Positions 1 through 12,114 of a stretch of 20,000 bases of DNA are shown here, in pieces. The notes beneath the pieces were generated by a model that was not told where the DNA came from, made no database searches, and saw only the letters and a list, made by a program, of their open reading frames with translations. Numbering within the stretch: position 1 is the first letter of the stretch; each line of letters opens with the position of its first letter. The stretch is from an uncultured virus (IMG/VR IMGVR_UViG_3300043571_000407). Its lineage: Duplodnaviria > Heunggongvirae > Uroviricota > Caudoviricetes. A program made the position numbers and the translations under genes. Where the stretch lies: the IMG/VR virus record IMGVR_UViG_3300043571_000407; one strand, written 5' to 3'.

Positions 1-882
1 CCGTGCGGCTTCTAGCTTCCGGTTCTCCCGACTCGTAGTATCAAACCGTGTAACAAGCGAATCGTGGCGTTCCTTTAATTCTTTCAATTCACGGAATCGA
101 GTACCGCTAATGGAAGCGAAAGATTCAGGGATTCCTGAATACTCAACTCCATCGCATCTAACTATTGCCATACGCTGTTCATTATCTCCATTATCATTGG
201 TTTTGTTAGGGTTGCTAGGGTTTTCGATGACTTGCCCTGCGACAGCTTGCCCTGCGACAGCTTGCCCTGCGACAGCTTGCCCTGCGACAGCTTGCCCTGC
301 GACAGCTTGCCCTGCGACAGCTTGCCCTGCGACAGCTTGCCCAATCCCCGCAGCACTATCTAATCGGAGGCGAACATCTCCCCCTGCCCTTCCTCGGCTC
401 GTCAAAGCCAAATGGTTGGCACGGACATTAATCTGTTCCCTGTCATAGTGTTGCCCATTCCACACCCCTTCCCCTTGCTTGATGTCGCAGGTATATCCAG
501 CAGATAGTTGTTCCTTTTCCCTTGCATCAATTAGGGCGATCGCCTTAGCATCAAAAAACGACACCAAGCCTTTGATCACCCCTTCAGTCTTGTCATAATA
601 AGCAGAAGAATCAGTCATCCCTACCGTGTAATCCTTGTAGCTTTCGCTATTAAGAAGTCCAACATAGGGATGTTCTATCACCAGGGGGAGGAGTTTGAAA
701 CTCTCTACTGTGGCCAGTTCTGCATTGGTTTCCGGTCTCCTGAGTTCGTGGACTATGGAGCCATCAGGCTGACGATACTCCAACACCCCGTCACAACAAA
801 AAGACCCCTCACAATGGAGACGACCATCCTCAGTTCTTATTACCCTAAATTTAGTTGGAGCATCGAGCCTGATTTCAACCAT
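1..882 (-). CDS. DUF2213-family phage head maturation protein (putative prohead protease + scaffold), 3' end beyond window
   Basis: Manual translation from ATG at 882: MVEIRLDAPTKFRVIRTEDGRLHCEGSFCCDGVLEYRQPDG...LPLVIEHP...EKEQLSAGYTCDI...GVWNGQHYDREQINVRANHLALTSRGRAGGDVRLRLDSAA. The ELSxGY and NHLAxxxxGRAG-like motifs are typical of DUF2213. Open to position 1 and absent from the ORF track. Confidence 0.88.
   Translation of the reverse strand, partial: MVEIRLDAPTKFRVIRTEDGRLHCEGSFCCDGVLEYRQPDGSIVHELRRPETNAELATVESFKLLPLVIEHPYVGLLNSESYKDYTVGMTDSSAYYDKTEGVIKGLVSFFDAKAIALIDAREKEQLSAGYTCDIKQGEGVWNGQHYDREQINVRANHLALTSRGRAGGDVRLRLDSAAGIGQAVAGQAVAGQAVAGQAVAGQAVAGQAVAGQAVAGQVIENPSNPNKTNDNGDNEQRMAIVRCDGVEYSGIPESFASISGTRFRELKELKERHDSLVTRFDTTSRENRKLEAAR
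231..342. repeat. 15-bp tandem repeat CTTGCCCTGCGACAG, 7 full copies plus a partial, encoding (GQAVA)7 in the DUF2213 protein
   Basis: Perfect copies start at 231, 246, 261, 276, 291, 306 and 321; in frame on the minus strand. Confidence 0.97.
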
Positions 883-1836: not shown

Positions 1837-2364
1837 TTAGCCCTCTAACAGAAACTGCTCTTGTTCTCTGATTACTCTCCAATCATCGTTATTTGCGTCC
1901 AGGGCTTCTTGTAAATCTTCCATAGTCCATTTGCTATAGTGGACTATTTTTTCCAACAGAAAGTCCAACGATTGCCGTGTGAAGACTTTTTCTAATATGT
2001 CATCCAACCCCGTCTCGGCAAACGCAGCCAACAAAATAATGGAATCTTGATTATTGTTAACTACTGCATCCCATGTGATTAACTTCGTAAAGTCTCTGGA
2101 TGAGATGGTCTTGCTTCGGGTTGTCCCTCTAGCTTTCTTTATTTCAGAGTCCTGAGTCGTACCAGAAAAACCAAGCCCTAGCAAAGACTTAAGAACTTCT
2201 GATTCACTTTTTAATAAACGCCCCAAGAAATCTTTCCCCCGACCGATTGCAATTCCGGCCCCAACAATTCCGATCCGTTTCTCTCCATTCGGGAACAGAT
2301 AACAGTCAATAGTTCTATTCCCTAGAGTTAATTCAGCACGGACTGATCGTATAATGTCTGACAT
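1837..2364 (-). CDS. Phage antirepressor-like DNA-binding protein (resembles the N-terminal region of P63C-domain proteins)
   Basis: RAELTLGNRTIDCYLFPNGEKRIG...AIG and LKSLLGLGFSG resemble this phage/prophage regulator family; assigned by pattern recognition only. Confidence 0.55.
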   Translation of the reverse strand: MSDIIRSVRAELTLGNRTIDCYLFPNGEKRIGIVGAGIAIGRGKDFLGRLLKSESEVLKSLLGLGFSGTTQDSEIKKARGTTRSKTISSRDFTKLITWDAVVNNNQDSIILLAAFAETGLDDILEKVFTRQSLDFLLEKIVHYSKWTMEDLQEALDANNDDWRVIREQEQFLLEG

Positions 2365-2873: not shown

Positions 2874-5800
2874 TTAAATTTCTTCGGTTTCTATTATAGT
2901 AAGATCACCTTCTTTTCTTACACTTTTAATTTTATGTCTCGTATTTTTTGATACGACAACCTCGTCCTCTCTCTGTCCAAATGTACTTAAATTTCTAATA
3001 GACACACCCGATTTATTCGGTGCTTTAACGATAACAGGATAGGTTTTCTTGACAGAAGATAGGTTCATGCCAGCAAAATCCTTGGCTTTCTCATAATTAG
3101 AAGTCCAAGAAGCGTGGGCGTTTTGGTTCCCCAGAATTCCATCTTCGCCTTTCACAAACTTATTAAGTTCTTCTTCAGAATCAAAATTCAATCCCCTAGA
3201 TATTTCTCCTGGGAATGGAGTGGATTGCTTTATAAATAAATCAAGGTTATCAGCATCTTTGCTGCTTCTGCCATTTTTCTGATCTTCTCTGATTTCGTAA
3301 GCATTCTCAGACCACTCTTTTACCGATTCAATAACACCCTCAGCGTCTTGAATACCAATTTTCTGCCCCTTTTTAGCCATCATATCCGAATACTCCTGGG
3401 CGTTTTTGGGAGTACCTTCATGGGTTCCATCGCCTAGTGTTCTGGGTGCGGTAAATTCCTGAACTGCGGTTGGTGCTATCTTTTTGTCTGCGTCCGAATT
3501 GGTTATTTCTTCAGTTTGTACATAGAATATGCCATCTTTCTCTGTAACACTTTTGACTTTGTGCTTGGCATCTTTTGAAACAATAACTTCCGATTCTTGA
3601 GGCTTTAGTCCTACATCCTTAATTGATACCCCCGTCTTGTTTTTTGCCTTAATAATAACAGGATAAGCTCCTTCTACATATTGAGACAAAGATGGATTTT
3701 CTTTGTAACTAGCTTTTGAAAAATCATAAGCTACTTTGTCATCAGAAGTCCATGAAGCATGAGCTTTTTGGTTGTCTAAAACGCCGTTTTCATCCCCTTT
3801 TAACCACGTCTCAACTTCTTCTCTACTATAGAAAAGAATCCCTCTACTTACATCCCCATCATAGGGTGTCATGCTTTTCATGAACCTATTGATATTTTCC
3901 TCGTTTTTATTTGGCCTCCCATCTTTTTGATCGTCTCTGACCTCATCGGAGTCTGTGATCCATCTTTTGACTGATTTAATGATTTTCTCAGCCTCCTCTA
4001 TAGTAATGTTTTCCCCTTTTTTAACCATCGCCTCGTAGTATTCTTGTGCGTTTTTAGGGGTTCCTTTGTGGGTTCCATTTCCAATAGTAATTAGTGGGGA
4101 TTCAGACTTTTTTGCTTGTACTTCAGTATCAGTTACTTCCTCAGTTTCTACATATATTATGCCATCTTTTTTCGTAATGTTCTTAACTTTGTGTTTTGCC
4201 TCTTTTGGTACAATAACCTCGTTCTGCAAAATATACTCAGTAGGCCCCATCTTTTTAATTGACACTCCTGTTTTGTTTATGGTTTTGATCATGACAGGCT
4301 GCCCTTCTCTACCGAATCCCCTCCTCTTCGCATAGTCCTCGGCATAGTCCTCCCTGGAAGTCCACGAAGCATGAGCCCCTTGATTATCCAGTATTCCATC
4401 TTTATCACCCTTTAACCAGTTCATTGCTTCTTTCTCTGAAGCAAAGTTTATGCCTCTATGTATTTCCCCTTTGATACCTTCAAATCTCTCGTCATTATAT
4501 GGAGTTGTATTTGCAATGTATTTAGAAATTAAATTTGCGTCTTCGTTAGGTTTATTTTCTTTTTGTGAATTTCTAACTGGGTCGGAATCTTGAGTCCATC
4601 GCCTGATTGCTTCATGTGTCGCCTTGGCCTCGTCTTCCGTTATCTCAATTCCGGCTTTAGTCGCCATATCATAATACTCCTGTGCATTCGTAGGAGCATC
4701 TCTATGAGTTCCATCTCCAATTCGTTTAGGAGTATCTTTAACTATTTCCTCTTTCGGGACTAAAGGCGATTCTTGTTCTTGCGATCGCTCCCCTTGAACT
4801 TTTACTGACTTTTGTTTTACTGCTTCAACGGATTTAACCCTCTTATCCGACTCGATAACTGTGTCTATTATCGTTTTAACCTTCTTCATTTTGCCTTGAG
4901 CATTTGACATGGCTTTTAGCCCATCTCTGTCCAAGCTCCAATCAACATCCGATTTGCCTAAATCAACAATTGCTTTTTTAGCCTGACTCTCGTCATCGAA
5001 ACTCCCTAAAGCCATGCCACTTTTAACATGAGTGACATTATATTTTGCCGTGGGACTCTTGCTATCTCTGTTTACACCAAGGTTTCCATAGATTTGACCA
5101 TCAACTGTTTCGCTTCCAGTTTTGGTTTCGATTTTATATGTTCCGTTTCTTCCCTCTAATTTTTTAGACTCGGATTCTAGCCAATTGTCATACAATTCAT
5201 TTACTGAGTTATCCTTGGATTTTAGCTTGGGTCTAGGGGGAGAATTATCCTCGACTTTTATCGCCTTCTGCTTTGGAGTTTTGGCGACCTTAGCCTTTGG
5301 AGTCTTGGGTGCTTTAGTTGTTAACGGGATAGGTTTAGTTGTCGAATCAGAATCACTGGGACTAACTACGGGAACCGTTATCTTAACATCGGGAGAAAGA
5401 ACATAAGTTTCCGATTCTTTGCTCCCGTCAGGAAGGATCTCTTTTGCAAAAGCATCCCTGGTATATTCATATTTTTGTTTAATATGATCACCAGTCCTGT
5501 CCATTTTTAGGTATAGATAGAAAGTATCACCTTTTTTGAGATCATCTTTGGTGATCACTCTTTCGGTTCCAGAGTCTACAGCAGATTTAATGGCACTATC
5601 AACGGAATCAACCGACTGTTTTGACAGTTTTTCAGCTTTAATTTCTTCTGCTTTCTTTTCAGCTAAGTTTTTATCTATATCCTTTTGTTTTTGAGGATCA
5701 TCTTCAACTGTCCATGCACCAGTCGGGACAGTCATCTTACTGGGCTTACCTGCTTTTGTCTTTTCCCAACCTTTCTCTATAACCATCGTGTTCCCGTCGG

Positions 5801-6500
5801 GATTAACCTTGAGAACTTTGGCTTTCCATTTTTTCGATCCAATAAGTGATCCCGTGACGGAATAAACGGAATCACCCGCTATGGGTACTAAATAGCCATT
5901 CGGTCTTTTGGCTCTATCTGATCCAGTTGCTTCCTTCTTGACTTCTGAAACAAGCGGCTCCGGTGGCTTTGGAGTTAATTTATTATCTTCTTGCTTCTTG
6001 GTTGGGTCATCCTGAACAGCTTTAAATTTCCCTGCTGCGGCTCTGAGTTTATCGACTTTTTCTTGGGAGGGTTTATCCGGTAAATCTGATTTGCAATTCT
6101 TATTCAACCCAATACAGGCTTTGCCGCAGTTATAGGAGGTATTGCCACACTTAGGTTTTTCCTTCCTCTTGGTTTTAACTGCGTCATACCGATAGGTGTA
6201 CCCTTTAGAAAATTCTTCCCACACCACTGGATCGATATCCGCGCTGTCTATTCTTTTCCAGGTAAACGGTTTGAAGGTAATGGAATCCCCAATCTCAAAC
6301 TCAAAAACACGGGATCTAATGGCGTCCTTAAACCGTCCTTTGATGATGTTTTTGTTGCCTACTTCAAAATCCAGAACGATAACCGGAGAGTTGTAGGCAA
6401 ATGGCATCGACAAGACTTGAGAAATACCAAGTTTCATCTGCACTTCTGTTGGGGCAGCATCAAGGCGGAGGGGTGTTTGATAACTTGAAATTGTGATCAT
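2874..6500 (-). CDS. Large multidomain (polyvalent-type) phage protein: shared leader + 4-Cys motif, several small domains, three tandem R-S-E class ADP-ribosyltransferase domains
   Basis: Three ~190-aa repeats (about 4724-4134, 4088-3504, 3440-2877), each with [HS]RG, AHASWTS and [QE]xEV (QNE, ESE, EDE). ATG 6500 preferred to TTG 6515. Confidence 0.85.
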   Translation of the reverse strand: MITISSYQTPLRLDAAPTEVQMKLGISQVLSMPFAYNSPVIVLDFEVGNKNIIKGRFKDAIRSRVFEFEIGDSITFKPFTWKRIDSADIDPVVWEEFSKGYTYRYDAVKTKRKEKPKCGNTSYNCGKACIGLNKNCKSDLPDKPSQEKVDKLRAAAGKFKAVQDDPTKKQEDNKLTPKPPEPLVSEVKKEATGSDRAKRPNGYLVPIAGDSVYSVTGSLIGSKKWKAKVLKVNPDGNTMVIEKGWEKTKAGKPSKMTVPTGAWTVEDDPQKQKDIDKNLAEKKAEEIKAEKLSKQSVDSVDSAIKSAVDSGTERVITKDDLKKGDTFYLYLKMDRTGDHIKQKYEYTRDAFAKEILPDGSKESETYVLSPDVKITVPVVSPSDSDSTTKPIPLTTKAPKTPKAKVAKTPKQKAIKVEDNSPPRPKLKSKDNSVNELYDNWLESESKKLEGRNGTYKIETKTGSETVDGQIYGNLGVNRDSKSPTAKYNVTHVKSGMALGSFDDESQAKKAIVDLGKSDVDWSLDRDGLKAMSNAQGKMKKVKTIIDTVIESDKRVKSVEAVKQKSVKVQGERSQEQESPLVPKEEIVKDTPKRIGDGTHRDAPTNAQEYYDMATKAGIEITEDEAKATHEAIRRWTQDSDPVRNSQKENKPNEDANLISKYIANTTPYNDERFEGIKGEIHRGINFASEKEAMNWLKGDKDGILDNQGAHASWTSREDYAEDYAKRRGFGREGQPVMIKTINKTGVSIKKMGPTEYILQNEVIVPKEAKHKVKNITKKDGIIYVETEEVTDTEVQAKKSESPLITIGNGTHKGTPKNAQEYYEAMVKKGENITIEEAEKIIKSVKRWITDSDEVRDDQKDGRPNKNEENINRFMKSMTPYDGDVSRGILFYSREEVETWLKGDENGVLDNQKAHASWTSDDKVAYDFSKASYKENPSLSQYVEGAYPVIIKAKNKTGVSIKDVGLKPQESEVIVSKDAKHKVKSVTEKDGIFYVQTEEITNSDADKKIAPTAVQEFTAPRTLGDGTHEGTPKNAQEYSDMMAKKGQKIGIQDAEGVIESVKEWSENAYEIREDQKNGRSSKDADNLDLFIKQSTPFPGEISRGLNFDSEEELNKFVKGEDGILGNQNAHASWTSNYEKAKDFAGMNLSSVKKTYPVIVKAPNKSGVSIRNLSTFGQREDEVVVSKNTRHKIKSVRKEGDLTIIETEEI

Positions 6501-6570
6501 GTTTTTAAAAATCAATTAATTCTAGTTTTTTTTGATTGGATCTGTTTTAGTTTACTTTTAAAATATTAAT

Positions 6571-7659
6571 CTAGTTCCACTGAAACAACTCCTCCCCTTT
6601 CTCTTTGACAGAAAATATCTTACTATTGGTTTTAAGATTTTCAAAATGACTATCTAATTGCTGTCGAGAAATTCCATTTTTTTTGGCATAATCATCTAAC
6701 AACTTATTACGTTTAATTGCTACAACCCCCTGTAGTTCCTGTTTTCTTTTTTCTTCGTTATAAAATTCTTTAAAATCTTTCTCGAATTTAGTATAAGATA
6801 TCTGTTTTTCTTTGATCGCTTTTTGTCCTGCACCCAGGTCTTTTGTTTTAGAGGATTTGGGTGCAGGTTGTTTTTTCTGCTCTTTGGGTGTCTGTCCTCC
6901 AGCCCAAGATAATAATTCTTCTCCTTTCTCCATTACTGAGAATATTTTTTTATTATCTTTTAATTTCTCGAAATAATCCTCTAACTGTTCACGGGGAACA
7001 TTGTACTTCCTTTCGGCAATATCTAACATCTGCCTGCGTTTAATTGCTACAACACCTTTTAATTCTTGCTTCCTTTGCTCCTCAAAATAAAGGTCTTCAA
7101 AGTCGCTCTCAAAATTAGAGTAAGAAAGTTTCTTGTCCTTTGATTCAGAAACTTTTGTTTTCTTCTGTTTTTCTCCCCCTTCTTGCCCCTCTTTAAAATT
7201 CTTCGCCAGAGACTTTAGTTTATCTATTCTATCTTTTGAGTTAGCATCATCGGGGTTGCACCTGCAATTTTTCTTAATATTTATACAAGATTTACCACAA
7301 TTATAAGATGTGGGCTTCACGCACTGCGGCTTTTTTTTAGCCCCTCCGGGTGTATCAAAGCGAAAGCTATAACCAAGGGAAAAATCCTCCCATTCCTCCT
7401 CATTGTCCAGTCGCCCAATCTTAAAAGGGCTAAAACGGATATCGTCCAAAATCTCGAAGCTAAACACACGAGGACGATCAGCATCCTTAAACCGTCCCGT
7501 AATTTTACCATCATCACCCACCTCAAAGTCCAAAACAATAACCGGAGAATTATAAATTAACGGGAGGGATAGTGTTTGGGTGATCGCTAACCGCATCTGT
7601 TCCTTGGTAGGAGCAGCATCAAGGCGAGGGGGATTTTGACGGTTTAAGGTAGTGACCAT
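6571..7659 (-). CDS. Paralog with the same leader + 4-Cys motif and two tandem ~77-aa repeats (winged-helix-like)
   Basis: N-terminus aligns with the ART protein (RLDAAPT..YNSPVIVLDFEVG..GRFKDA..WEDFS..SYNCGKSCI). Repeats SYxxFExDF..RKQELxGVVAIKR..KIFSVxEKGEELxxW at about 7134-6904 and 6807-6574. Confidence 0.8.
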   Translation of the reverse strand: MVTTLNRQNPPRLDAAPTKEQMRLAITQTLSLPLIYNSPVIVLDFEVGDDGKITGRFKDADRPRVFSFEILDDIRFSPFKIGRLDNEEEWEDFSLGYSFRFDTPGGAKKKPQCVKPTSYNCGKSCINIKKNCRCNPDDANSKDRIDKLKSLAKNFKEGQEGGEKQKKTKVSESKDKKLSYSNFESDFEDLYFEEQRKQELKGVVAIKRRQMLDIAERKYNVPREQLEDYFEKLKDNKKIFSVMEKGEELLSWAGGQTPKEQKKQPAPKSSKTKDLGAGQKAIKEKQISYTKFEKDFKEFYNEEKRKQELQGVVAIKRNKLLDDYAKKNGISRQQLDSHFENLKTNSKIFSVKEKGEELFQWN

Positions 7660-7711: not shown

Positions 7712-7936
7712 TTACCAGTCTTCCGGCCCTTGAGCTACAAAACGCTTGGCACGTTCTCGTTTTTCCTCTTCTGTCAAATCGTCATAGCTTTTTTTTGGAT
7801 ATTTCTTAGCCATTCTTTCATCAAATTCCTGCAATGTCTCCCCTTCCCCTAAAGCATCCTCATCTTCGGATACAACAGCAGGAGGAACGGTTTTAATTTT
7901 CTTTTGTCCTTCAACAGCAGTTTTTTTGGCTTTCAT
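7712..7936 (-). CDS. Small highly charged hypothetical protein (74 aa)
   Basis: ATG start, co-oriented with its neighbours, fills the gap between leader-family copies. Confidence 0.55.
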   Translation of the reverse strand: MKAKKTAVEGQKKIKTVPPAVVSEDEDALGEGETLQEFDERMAKKYPKKSYDDLTEEEKRERAKRFVAQGPEDW

Positions 7937-7986: not shown

Positions 7987-8102
7987 TTAATTAAGTTTAC
8001 TTCTACCAATATCAAAATGTGCTTGGGCGATCGCTAACTTCACCTGGATTTCTGTTGGCGGAGCATCGAATCTTAATTTTGTCCATAAAGTACAGATGTC
8101 AT
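7987..8102 (-). pseudogene. Frameshifted, truncated third copy of the shared leader
   Basis: ATG 8102 gives MTSVLYGQN*; a 1-nt shift gives LRFDAPPTEIQVKLAIAQ, matching LRLDAAPTEVQMKLGISQ and PRLDAAPTKEQMRLAITQ. Confidence 0.75.
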
Positions 8103-10119: not shown

Positions 10120-12114
10120 CTAATCTAATTGAGCTTGGACATTGATTCTATTTGCTATATCTGTTAATATCTTTCCTTGATAAACTTCGTCAACTTCCTC
10201 TGAGTCTTCTACATCTTGGCGATATTGGTTTAACTCCGTAGGATCGCACTTCTCTACTCCCCCAAAACGATCTAATCCGGCATGGTAGTAATAGCAATCG
10301 CGCACTTCTTTTGGGGAATCAAAACCCAAAAAATACTTTGTTTCGTCAATCTCCCCTGTTGCTGTGTTAAGTTGCCGAACCTTCCAGAGACTTGGTGAGT
10401 TCGGGTTTTTGATGTAAACGTCGATTGCTTTCGCGTCCTCCGCGTGTCCGTAGCTGCGTCTAATATGCCCATACCCTGCCTTCATTGTTTTGTTATAGCG
10501 AAGATCCCCTTTGTCGTGAGTGACCCCAATAGATAGCCCGTGCCAATTAAGAACCCGTTTTATTGGGGTGTAAGCAGCACTGTCCATTTGAGTTATAGGT
10601 TCTTCTTCAACAGGAGCAGGTTCTTCGGTGGGTGGGGCAGCTTCCTCTCCTCCTAACGCCCCCATATCAAAACCACCGAGGGAGTTTGCTTGTTCTTCTG
10701 CTTTCTTCCTGGCTTCTTCCCATGCTTTTTGATCAATGTTAAATTCTGGCCACCAATCGGAGTTAGAAGGTACTGTCCGAGCTTCGTTGGGCGTAATAAA
10801 TCCGGCTTGAATCCCTGAAGCTAAGGCTTGAATATCAGATAAGCGTCCAGAGCGAAGATCCTCAATGGTCATTCTCAAAATTGAGGGATACTGCCTTTGA
10901 TAGTCGTCGGGGATTTTGCCTTTTGTGGGGCCGTCTTTGGCCAAGAAGATATAGCGATCAAGAATAGCCGCACTAGGATCTAAATTCTCTCCCTGGTACT
11001 CTGCTACCGAGTTAGCGTAGTTTATTTGGGTTTCCTTGCCATCACGCCCTAACCCCCCAGGGCTTTCCCCCCAAACTATCGTGTGAGGCATTCCAGAGGC
11101 CCCCGTAACCCCATCCTTTTGTACTTGCACAAGTGAATCCATCCCGGCGAGGGGACGGGCGTTCCAGTTGAATTGTTCACGGGAGTCATGGAGAACCATG
11201 CCATATAAATCAAACATTAATCGAATTGATTTCATGGTTTGCTTAATAGCTGCAATACTTTCTTCATCAGATGCCATCATCAGTTCCCGTAGTCCTTCAA
11301 AAGAATGCTGTAAAACCGATTGGGTTTTAATCAATTCGCCTACTGCATTGAGTCCATTTGTATAGTTTTTGTAATACTTCCAAACCTCGTCAAAGACACT
11401 CAACCCCCATCCATTATTGTAAGAAATCATCCAATCATCAGGCATTAATGCCCCATTAAACCGAAGGATTCGAGACCGATGAATAAGGCGATCATCTTGC
11501 TTAGAGTTTGTTTCGTTAAACAGTAATTTTTGTTTTATTTGTTGGTCAATTGTTAGGATTTCATAATGTTCAATATCATCAAGGTCAAATATACTCGCAG
11601 CCGTTCTCACCGAAGGAGCAACTTGCCATCGGTGACGAACAATTAACCCAGAAATTGATTTAATCTTGCCTTCGTTAACAGGTTCGGAATAATGTCTCCC
11701 GTCATTAATCTTGAGAATAATAACTGTCCCGCCGTGAGAACGAGAGAACTGTAAGGCTTTTCTAAATTGTGATCTAGTTTTTAGTCTTTCGTGATAAGCA
11801 TAGTAATCGCGGACTAATTTAGAACCCACCTTACTAGAGAAATCATCCCCCAAGGATAACTGCCACATCTTTTGGGTTGACGAAGATGGAAGGCTCCACG
11901 CTATCCGCTTTAAGATCGCGTCCGCCAAGCAATTCTCGACCTGTTGCTGGGAGAAAGGTTGGATTCTTCCCGTTACAGGGAGAGGATTTCGCATCGAATT
12001 TGCGTCGGCACTCTCCGCCAACGCTTGCATCATGACGCGAGAGTCTTCCCGATAACGGTTCGCAATCTCTGTGGTGGTTTCTTTTTTTGTTGTCTCGGAT
12101 GATTGGGCGGTCAT
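10120..12114 (-). CDS. Portal protein (DUF1073 family) fused to a C-terminal inorganic-pyrophosphatase-like (InPase) domain
   Basis: Portal motifs SRSHGGTVI, IHRSRILRFNG, GWGLSV, GASGMPHTIVWGESPGGL and ITPNEAR. After an acidic/Pro linker: WHGLSIGV..GDLR..YGHI..DAKAIDVYI..VRQL..DETKYFLGFDS. Confidence 0.85.
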   Translation of the reverse strand: MTAQSSETTKKETTTEIANRYREDSRVMMQALAESADANSMRNPLPVTGRIQPFSQQQVENCLADAILKRIAWSLPSSSTQKMWQLSLGDDFSSKVGSKLVRDYYAYHERLKTRSQFRKALQFSRSHGGTVIILKINDGRHYSEPVNEGKIKSISGLIVRHRWQVAPSVRTAASIFDLDDIEHYEILTIDQQIKQKLLFNETNSKQDDRLIHRSRILRFNGALMPDDWMISYNNGWGLSVFDEVWKYYKNYTNGLNAVGELIKTQSVLQHSFEGLRELMMASDEESIAAIKQTMKSIRLMFDLYGMVLHDSREQFNWNARPLAGMDSLVQVQKDGVTGASGMPHTIVWGESPGGLGRDGKETQINYANSVAEYQGENLDPSAAILDRYIFLAKDGPTKGKIPDDYQRQYPSILRMTIEDLRSGRLSDIQALASGIQAGFITPNEARTVPSNSDWWPEFNIDQKAWEEARKKAEEQANSLGGFDMGALGGEEAAPPTEEPAPVEEEPITQMDSAAYTPIKRVLNWHGLSIGVTHDKGDLRYNKTMKAGYGHIRRSYGHAEDAKAIDVYIKNPNSPSLWKVRQLNTATGEIDETKYFLGFDSPKEVRDCYYYHAGLDRFGGVEKCDPTELNQYRQDVEDSEEVDEVYQGKILTDIANRINVQAQLD

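Follow-up and report, generated by a model that had tools for sequence, protein, structure and literature searches.

Alt of phage T4 and the capsid targeting sequence (CTS) borne by internal proteins of that phage, as described in PMC9026906, provide one point of comparison for a protein with three tandem ADP-ribosyltransferase (ART) domains that is encoded by an uncultured lake virus related to the Planktothrix phage PaV-LD. The two systems have in common an R-S-E ART and a varied cargo carrying a common N-terminal extension, which in the triple-ART protein is a putative propeptide; processing by a head protease at a short motif, ejection and host takeover would likewise be shared. The T4 CTS, however, spans 7-19 residues, whereas in the leader of the triple-ART protein about 110 aa include a folded subdomain, to which a Cys4 module is added; and where T4 uses gp21 and x-x-E, a DUF2213 protease and R-x-D are proposed here. 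Unlike T4 Alt, as far as the cited part of PMC9026906 describes it, the present system has ARTs in tandem and a genome total of seven ART domains, with packaging and targets that are putative.

MuF toxins, a second point of comparison, resemble the triple-ART protein in being products of head-module genes in which a constant N-terminus is joined to C-terminal enzymes that vary, ART and metallopeptidase domains among them (PMC5576092, in the part cited). The trait of a C-terminal toxin domain in a head-module gene between portal and head protease is indeed present. The MuF domain (PF04233), however, was absent from the triple-ART protein, from its own contig (80% complete) and from 5/5 related records, in searches whose controls were matched in 5/14; and no small cognate immunity ORF was found downstream of the ART gene at 17 loci, where the next ORF was the same 175-290-aa gene in 12 cases, irrespective of ART type, with a further paralog in two, a different ORF of 249 aa in two, and the contig end in one. 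A search for ADP-ribosylglycohydrolase (ARH) or Macro domains was likewise negative in 5/5 records. Because it lacks both a MuF domain (6/6 genomes searched) and an immunity ORF, the triple-ART protein is not a member of the MuF toxins, from which it further differs in the many paralogs found per genome.

Polyvalent proteins also correspond in part, being multi-domain effectors encoded near virion genes and containing ART, GNAT, metallopeptidase and InPase domains (PMC5512222 and PMC9503650, in the parts cited); the triple-ART protein, too, is a single chain that joins several effector domains and has its gene among those of the virion. Tandem ARTs are by themselves not new, and phage polyvalent proteins are described with up to 12 ART copies per chain; those ARTs belong to the H-Y-D clade, as opposed to the R-S-E triad of the triple-ART protein (PMC5512222, section 9). 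The head paralogs of SPN3US and phiKZ display propeptides of more than 100 aa with several cut sites, and a paralog number that depends on the phage, but these jumbo phages use a different protease and a different motif, and their paralogs, in the cited portion of PMC5694885, are not a common leader with swapped toxin-type enzymes. The search of literature listings, whose scope stopped short of the original PaV-LD paper (which may bear on the matter), returned no report that describes, for PaV-LD-like phages, either ARTs or a family of paralogs with a common leader; the word 'Planktothrix' is absent from the main texts of PMC5512222 and PMC9503650, whose supplements lay outside that scope and may also bear.

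The reading favored here, to which a probability of roughly 0.6 is assigned, is that shuffled ART cassettes behind a common leader represent virion cargo that is processed by a protease and delivered at infection, with repeats 2 and 3 likely modifying arginine and repeat 1 probably using another acceptor or hydrolyzing NAD.

Gene context and fold of the three repeats

The window (the whole analyzed stretch of DNA, 20,000 nucleotides in length) belongs to a 78-kb virus record that is 80% complete (IMGVR_UViG_3300043571_000407). Its capsid protein is 98% and its portal 94% identical to those of PaV-LD, and because of that closeness the host is likely Planktothrix. The stretch in which three tandem ART-like repeats had been noted during first-pass annotation (positions 2877-4724) corresponds to the 3' half of a 1213-codon minus-strand ORF (6515..2874), which is counted from a TTG; the recorded protein begins at Met6, and the probable start is an ATG at 6500. 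The gene sits between the portal and the DUF2213 head protease, that is, in the head module (Table 1). Family searches returned no match for its middle region (aa 161-596).

Table 1. Coordinates of the triple-ART gene, its parts and its neighbors within the window
Feature	Position	Strand	Details
Leader + three middle segments + three ART repeats	2874..6515	-	One ORF, 1213 aa; phrog_16619 minor head protein, E 7e-207
Leader subdomain A (helix + beta sheet)	6183..6455	-	R-x-D flanks at aa 17, 88, 109 (6467, 6254, 6191); core pLDDT about 88
Leader subdomain B, Cys4 module C-x5/6-YxCGxxC-x6-C	6036..6158	-	Directly behind last R-x-D; pLDDT 81-86
Variable Lys-rich middle region	4728..6035	-	aa 161-596, three segments; swapped wholesale in relatives
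ART repeat 1 (predicted)	4131..4727	-	aa 597-795; R687, S717, Y-x-x-Q764-x-E766; 99.5% twin in R1+R3 alleles
ART repeat 2 (predicted)	3501..4091	-	aa 809-1005; R891, S921, E974-x-E976; 97-98% twins as sole ART of related proteins
ART repeat 3 (predicted)	2877..3443	-	aa 1025-1213; R1107, S1136, E1183-x-E1185; 98-99% twins as lone ART or following QNE or EAE
Neighboring paralog	6571..7659	-	Leader + two copies of a ~80-aa domain of no assigned family
Portal protein with fused InPase domain	10120..12114	-	PF06381 E 2e-46, PF18823 E 3e-26; polyvalent-type cargo domain
DUF2213 head maturation protease-scaffold	1..882	-	541 aa, 13 R-x-D; extends past window; candidate processing enzyme

Several smaller features surround the gene. 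Downstream of it, a 50-bp perfect direct repeat occupies intergenic positions 2467-2516 and 2534-2583, and positions 2647-2767 form a partial copy, 79% identical, of the start of ORF 2364..1837 (phrog_32599; aligned at 2265-2385), relatives possessing one or the other version as an intact gene. On the upstream side, 7990-8075 (minus strand) contains a short remnant of a leader start (an R-x-D followed by the first helix) that is terminated by a stop, after which a 74-aa ORF (7712-7936, minus strand) resembles the C-terminal tail of the ART-bearing homolog P0048.

Each repeat is about 195 aa in length, and the motifs read by the first-pass annotation were found exactly as claimed: the Arg lies in HRG, SRG and SRG in repeats 1, 2 and 3, respectively, ASWTS occurs in all three, and the catalytic Glu stands in QNE, ESE and EDE. 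The loop behind ASWTS, described there as variable, comprises 20, 28 and 21 residues. All three repeats occur unchanged (0 differences) on single contigs in two of eight public runs (X2 and X3, the latter being a possible source); in a third run (X8) one contig spans both repeat junctions with six differences, and in another (X6) the junctions are tiled with short overlaps. An assembly chimera is ruled out by the contigs of X2 and X3 and by the bridging contig of X8. An RNA library (X15) contains pieces of all three repeat types; it is without a silent control, so expression is not claimed.

Structure prediction and Foldseek agree with the ART fold that had been proposed. The model was made for repeat 1 alone (folded with 80 relatives; pLDDT 95, pTM 0.90) and displays the ARTC fold, with Foldseek in agreement at E 5e-9; repeats 2 and 3 were assigned the fold by homology. 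Against solved structures, the model shares its fold and triad with Vis (Z 15.4, rmsd 3.4, 167 aligned), Tre1 (6drh, Z 14.1), C3bot2 (13.7) and HopU1 (13.3), but identity to these is 13-16%, they are bacterial secreted effectors (some with immunity partners), and an acceptor cannot be deduced from the fold. Of the QxE enzymes to which repeat 1 had been likened, C3 is thus close in structure, whereas pertussis S1 (Z 3.3) and pierisin (3.1) rank low, at about 3 versus 13-15, as does Scabin (4.5), these weak matches leaving shared chemistry possible. A sequence profile search returned Vis first at E 2.7e-22, with R, S and E in register, and C3 at 0.006; phmmer with the three repeats against PDB sequences gave 0 matches, so that the profile search was required. 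Single repeats fall below Pfam thresholds and the whole protein matches PF01129 at E 0.0036, under the cut-off, although among 80 aligned relatives PF03496 is matched by 45 and PF01129 by 36. Collectively, the three repeats are predicted to be cholera-toxin-class (R-S-E, ARTC) ADP-ribosyltransferase domains.

A role of the repeats as structural filler of the head, devoid of catalysis, would fit both their sub-threshold Pfam scores and the dispensability of ART cargo described below, but is highly improbable: the catalytic Glu is conserved in 191/191 and the Arg in 190/191 aligned domains (a redundant set, in which the window's own are counted twice), and pN is 0.30-0.36 versus a pS of 0.73-0.83 between repeats, and 0.02 versus 0.087 among repeat 2 alleles. 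Alleles of repeats 1 and 3, with 3-4 changes, are uninformative on selection at that level. Over 28 ART types (144 domains clustered at 80%), R is found in 28/28, S in 27/28 and E in 28/28; a 'KAE' in L008, considered as a further ART domain, proved to be a truncated remnant and was excluded from the 28.

Probable origin of the repeats in exchangeable cassettes

The first-pass annotation had explained the tandem array by internal triplication followed by diversification toward different substrates. Such a history would account for tandem, in-register repeats with similarity at the DNA level (63, 62 and 65%; protein 52, 41 and 51%; longest exact run 12 nt), and all of the cassettes do stem from some older duplication. 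As an account of this gene, however, it is largely refuted and now seems a very long shot, since the three do not group together as nearest relatives: a constraint placing repeats 1, 2 and 3 in one clade was rejected with a p-AU of 3.17e-10 in a quick tree of the 28 types, in which repeat 1 grouped instead as the sister of a VSE type with support of 96. The repeats are, moreover, as distant from their own neighbors (41-52% identity) as from the ARTs of other paralogs (43-53%), and each is found nearly unchanged in other architectures, the closest twins elsewhere being 99.5% (repeat 1), 97.9% (repeat 2) and 98.9% (repeat 3) identical and residing in proteins with repeats 1 and 3, repeat 2 alone, repeat 3 alone, or an EAE type ahead of repeat 3. 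Given the lack of a common clade and these near-identical twins, the repeats were likely joined by recombination between pre-existing cassettes.

The variation among relatives is extensive. Among 41 homologs (self not counted), three repeats occur in three, two in nine, one plus a fragment in one, and a single repeat in 28. One related locus (L018) crosses from the end of repeat 1 into the linker between repeats 2 and 3 inside a shared stretch. Lake metagenomes also contain in-frame joints: within a single run (X9) one omitting 630 nt (repeat 2) coexists with one omitting 636 nt (repeat 1), the latter being seen also in runs X14 and X15. In a set of 52 proteins whose leaders are identical at 80% or more, the ART content was none in 25, EAE in eight, ESE in eight, MEE in three, EAE-EDE in two and EDE in two, while EAE-MEE, QNE-EDE, ENE and the triple of the window occurred once each; because 25/52 have no ART, the ART cargo on a near-identical leader is dispensable. 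The number and identity of cassettes would, under the proposed mechanism, grow and shrink within the population; as to direction, the triple may have been assembled stepwise, or the pairs may have descended from it.

Leader, its proposed processing and evidence from virions

The first ~150 residues of the triple-ART protein are common to seven ORFs of the contig, at E 1e-34 or better. Behind this leader the seven paralogs contain, respectively, the three ARTs; two ARTs (EDE, EDE); two ARTs (QDE, EKE) and a GNAT; a GNAT; a likely peptidase with a HEXXH motif (read from the sequence, with no Pfam match); and, in two proteins, doubled segments of no assigned family, for totals of seven ART domains, two GNATs and one likely Zn peptidase. 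Five of these paralogs lie outside the window, between head-completion and tape measure genes (G000:C1:44643-54282, L003), with cargo of two ARTs, two ARTs and a GNAT, a GNAT, the HEXXH peptidase-like domain, and one without an assigned family. By comparison with the seven ART domains of this contig, four related records contain 3, 3, 4 and 5, and in PaV-LD eight ORFs among 19 tested have a whole or partial leader.

Other arrangements of the leader and of its ARTs were observed in related genomes. In PaV-LD (L004:18492-21489 and 22711-25604; ORF061/062 and ORF065/066), two ARTs are annotated apart from a leader gene just upstream, and ORF061 terminates in the same linker that stands ahead of repeat 1 in the triple-ART protein. 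ParB-like domains follow the leader in P0183, P0188 and P0208; and, by eye, P0056 is a portal-like protein with two ARTs of the triple-ART family and P0111 has an InPase-like domain ahead of leader and ART. Leader matches in two non-cyanobacterial MAGs (4/5 loci) are inferred to be misbinned phage contigs.

In the model of the leader, subdomain A is predicted with confidence, residues 83-115 (model numbering) form a linker of low confidence, and subdomain B is the Cys4 module, whose four Cys are invariant in 38/38 aligned rows. The R-x-D-bearing segments lie at or next to stretches with pLDDT under 50, and the invariant D85 and R104-x-D106 fall in the low-confidence linker (model numbering). 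The leader matched no Pfam or NCBIfam family and gave no usable Atlas match, blanks that are not proof of novelty, and subdomain A had no clear match among solved folds (best Z 5.0).

R-x-D is found 17 times in the leaders, against an expectation of 3.4 (the three leader sites are homologous across paralogs, so that these are not 17 independent events), and 13 times in the protease-scaffold against 3.7, whereas it is near chance in the cargo (11 versus 8.7) and in other ORFs (38 versus 44); the capsid protein has an R-x-D at residue 9. The protease-scaffold (1-882, minus strand) also harbors eight tandem AGQAV units behind an R-x-D site. In the proposed mechanism, the leader would target the triple-ART protein to the prohead and so load it into the virion, and the DUF2213 protease would cut the leader at R-x-D. 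The cleavage product would be a single chain of Cys4 module, middle region and three ARTs, since R-x-D-[A/S/G] is absent between the three repeats, and this processed chain would be ejected with the DNA into the cyanobacterial host at infection.

Evidence from virions is available for relatives of both leader and ART. Foldseek with the leader returned PaV-LD proteins, Nodularia phage proteins, and two entries that fit ORF048 and ORF045 of the Aphanizomenon phage CL131 (an assignment inferred from protein length), and a profile search of 28 CL131 ORFs located R-x-D and Cys4 in ORF044, ORF045, ORF047 and ORF048, four times in the last. Whole-leader profile scores in CL131 were 7-19 bits, against at most 3.5-4.5 for shuffled controls, with ORF048 reaching E 8e-6 by blastp, and the leader-bearing ORFs are found at the equivalent position, flanked by head-completion and tape measure genes. 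In ORF048 (L052:37705-43140) and ORF047 (L052:36716-37708), R-x-D and Cys4 stand ahead of a repeated GHSAG serine-hydrolase-like cargo. LC-MS/MS of purified CL131 particles, as tabulated in PMC6293099 (SI Table 5), gave 9, 33, 14 and 105 peptides for ORF044, ORF045, ORF047 and ORF048, respectively, and 123 spectra for ORF045 and 175 for ORF048, above the 86 of the capsid protein; 23/28 searched ORFs are on that proteome list, so that presence there is no measure of enrichment, and the four are distant homologs with non-ART cargo in a proteome that cannot separate the inside from the outside of the particle. For the ART itself, P-SS2 gp030, annotated as a head morphogenesis protein, contains a domain of the same family as the triple-ART protein (64 bits) and was represented by 96.5 peptides in virions (PMC2784084, in the part cited), and the structural neighbors are portal and minor-capsid fusions. 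The GenBank labels of PaV-LD ORF085R ('minor virion protein') and ORF081R ('virion structural protein') were not traced to proteomics and are not counted.

These observations bear on an alternative without virion delivery, in which the protein acts in the producing cell (in late shut-off or competitor exclusion, like T4 ModA/ModB) or decorates the particle surface. One paralog cluster is flanked by head-completion genes on one side and the tape measure gene on the other, which, together with the missing MuF domain, would accord with it. We nevertheless regard this alternative as improbable, in view of the R-x-D that the leader has in common with the capsid N-terminus and scaffold, the abundance of leader-bearing CL131 proteins in purified particles, and the fusion of ART relatives to portal or head morphogenesis proteins.

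Predicted acceptors and the possible meaning of a shuffled arsenal

The rule invoked by the first-pass annotation, that ExE indicates arginine specificity, finds support as a lead in the cited part of PMC3102197, where the partners of QxE are given as Cys, Asn or DNA modification, or only hydrolysis of NAD, as for rat ART2. The R-S-ExE signature of arginine-specific ARTs is present in repeats 2 (ESE) and 3 (EDE) and absent from repeat 1 (QNE); because ExE marks that specificity (PMC3102197), repeats 2 and 3 likely modify arginine, and repeat 1 likely uses a non-arginine acceptor or hydrolyzes NAD. Within the host, repeats 2 and 3 would transfer ADP-ribose to arginine residues in host proteins, serving takeover or anti-defense as with T4 Alt, and repeat 1 would perform no arginine transfer, acting on another acceptor or hydrolyzing NAD.

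Across the 191 aligned domains, the position two before the Glu holds E in 168, Q in 14, M in five, A in two, V in one and D in one; given the dominance of E, the family is of ExE type, with Q likely derived. An aromatic residue stands three before the Gln in 4/4 QxE types versus 4/19 ExE types, the QxE set amounting to at most three lineages, and this spacing is one we take to be that of C3; the aromatic speaks for a new acceptor, whereas the V, A, M and D that also occupy the position of the Gln speak for relaxed specificity or NAD hydrolysis. In the type that is sister to the QNE repeat, Val stands two before the Glu; this is as compatible with lost arginine transfer or with NAD hydrolysis as it is with a new acceptor. 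Among the parts measured, conservation is lowest in the ARTT loop (0.35) and in the segment behind SWTS (0.36), compared with 0.68-0.89 at the NAD-binding motifs; loop variability is common to any enzyme family.

The same position informs a further alternative, in which the protein is packaged and delivered alike but its repeats are redundant, serving one target class or mainly hydrolyzing NAD, with their diversity reflecting escape from host inhibitors or hydrolases, or drift. ExE is found in two of the three repeats and 19/28 types, any single cassette can occupy the ART slot alone, V, A, M and D also occur two before the Glu among the 28 types, and the QxE enzyme rat ART2 only hydrolyzes NAD, all of which would suit redundancy. 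Against this stand the aromatic at constant spacing in every QxE type, the retention of divergent types side by side in many proteins, and target-contact loops that differ in length by up to eight residues among the repeats, and redundancy is accordingly judged unlikely, if a little less so than action without delivery.

Returning to delivered cargo with differing acceptors, a broader interpretation can be offered only tentatively, with the odds somewhat against it: that these phages of filamentous cyanobacteria possess a MuF-independent, polymorphic virion-effector system, in which a portable tag of ~150 aa loads an arsenal of enzymes and ART cassettes are reshuffled inside lake populations to match host defenses. 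In such a system the tag would comprise subdomain A between R-x-D sites, the Cys4 module staying on the cargo, and the arsenal would hold, alongside seven ARTs of two or more chemistries, a pair of GNATs and a Zn peptidase.

To our knowledge, head-delivered ARTs have been tested almost exclusively in T4. PaV-LD, growing on the bloom former Planktothrix agardhii, is a cultured model with an unusually large and naturally shuffled ART set, and the 28 ART types, on one scaffold, vary naturally at the residue to which arginine specificity is attributed. Three ideas become testable: (i) the ExE/QxE rule as a predictor of acceptor within one family; (ii) the common leader and R-x-D as a code for packaging and processing in DUF2213 phages; and (iii) the relation of cassette shuffling to host range in bloom-controlling cyanophages. 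The part worth testing is thus not tandem ARTs per se, but a leader-tagged, shuffled arsenal in a cultured group of cyanophages.
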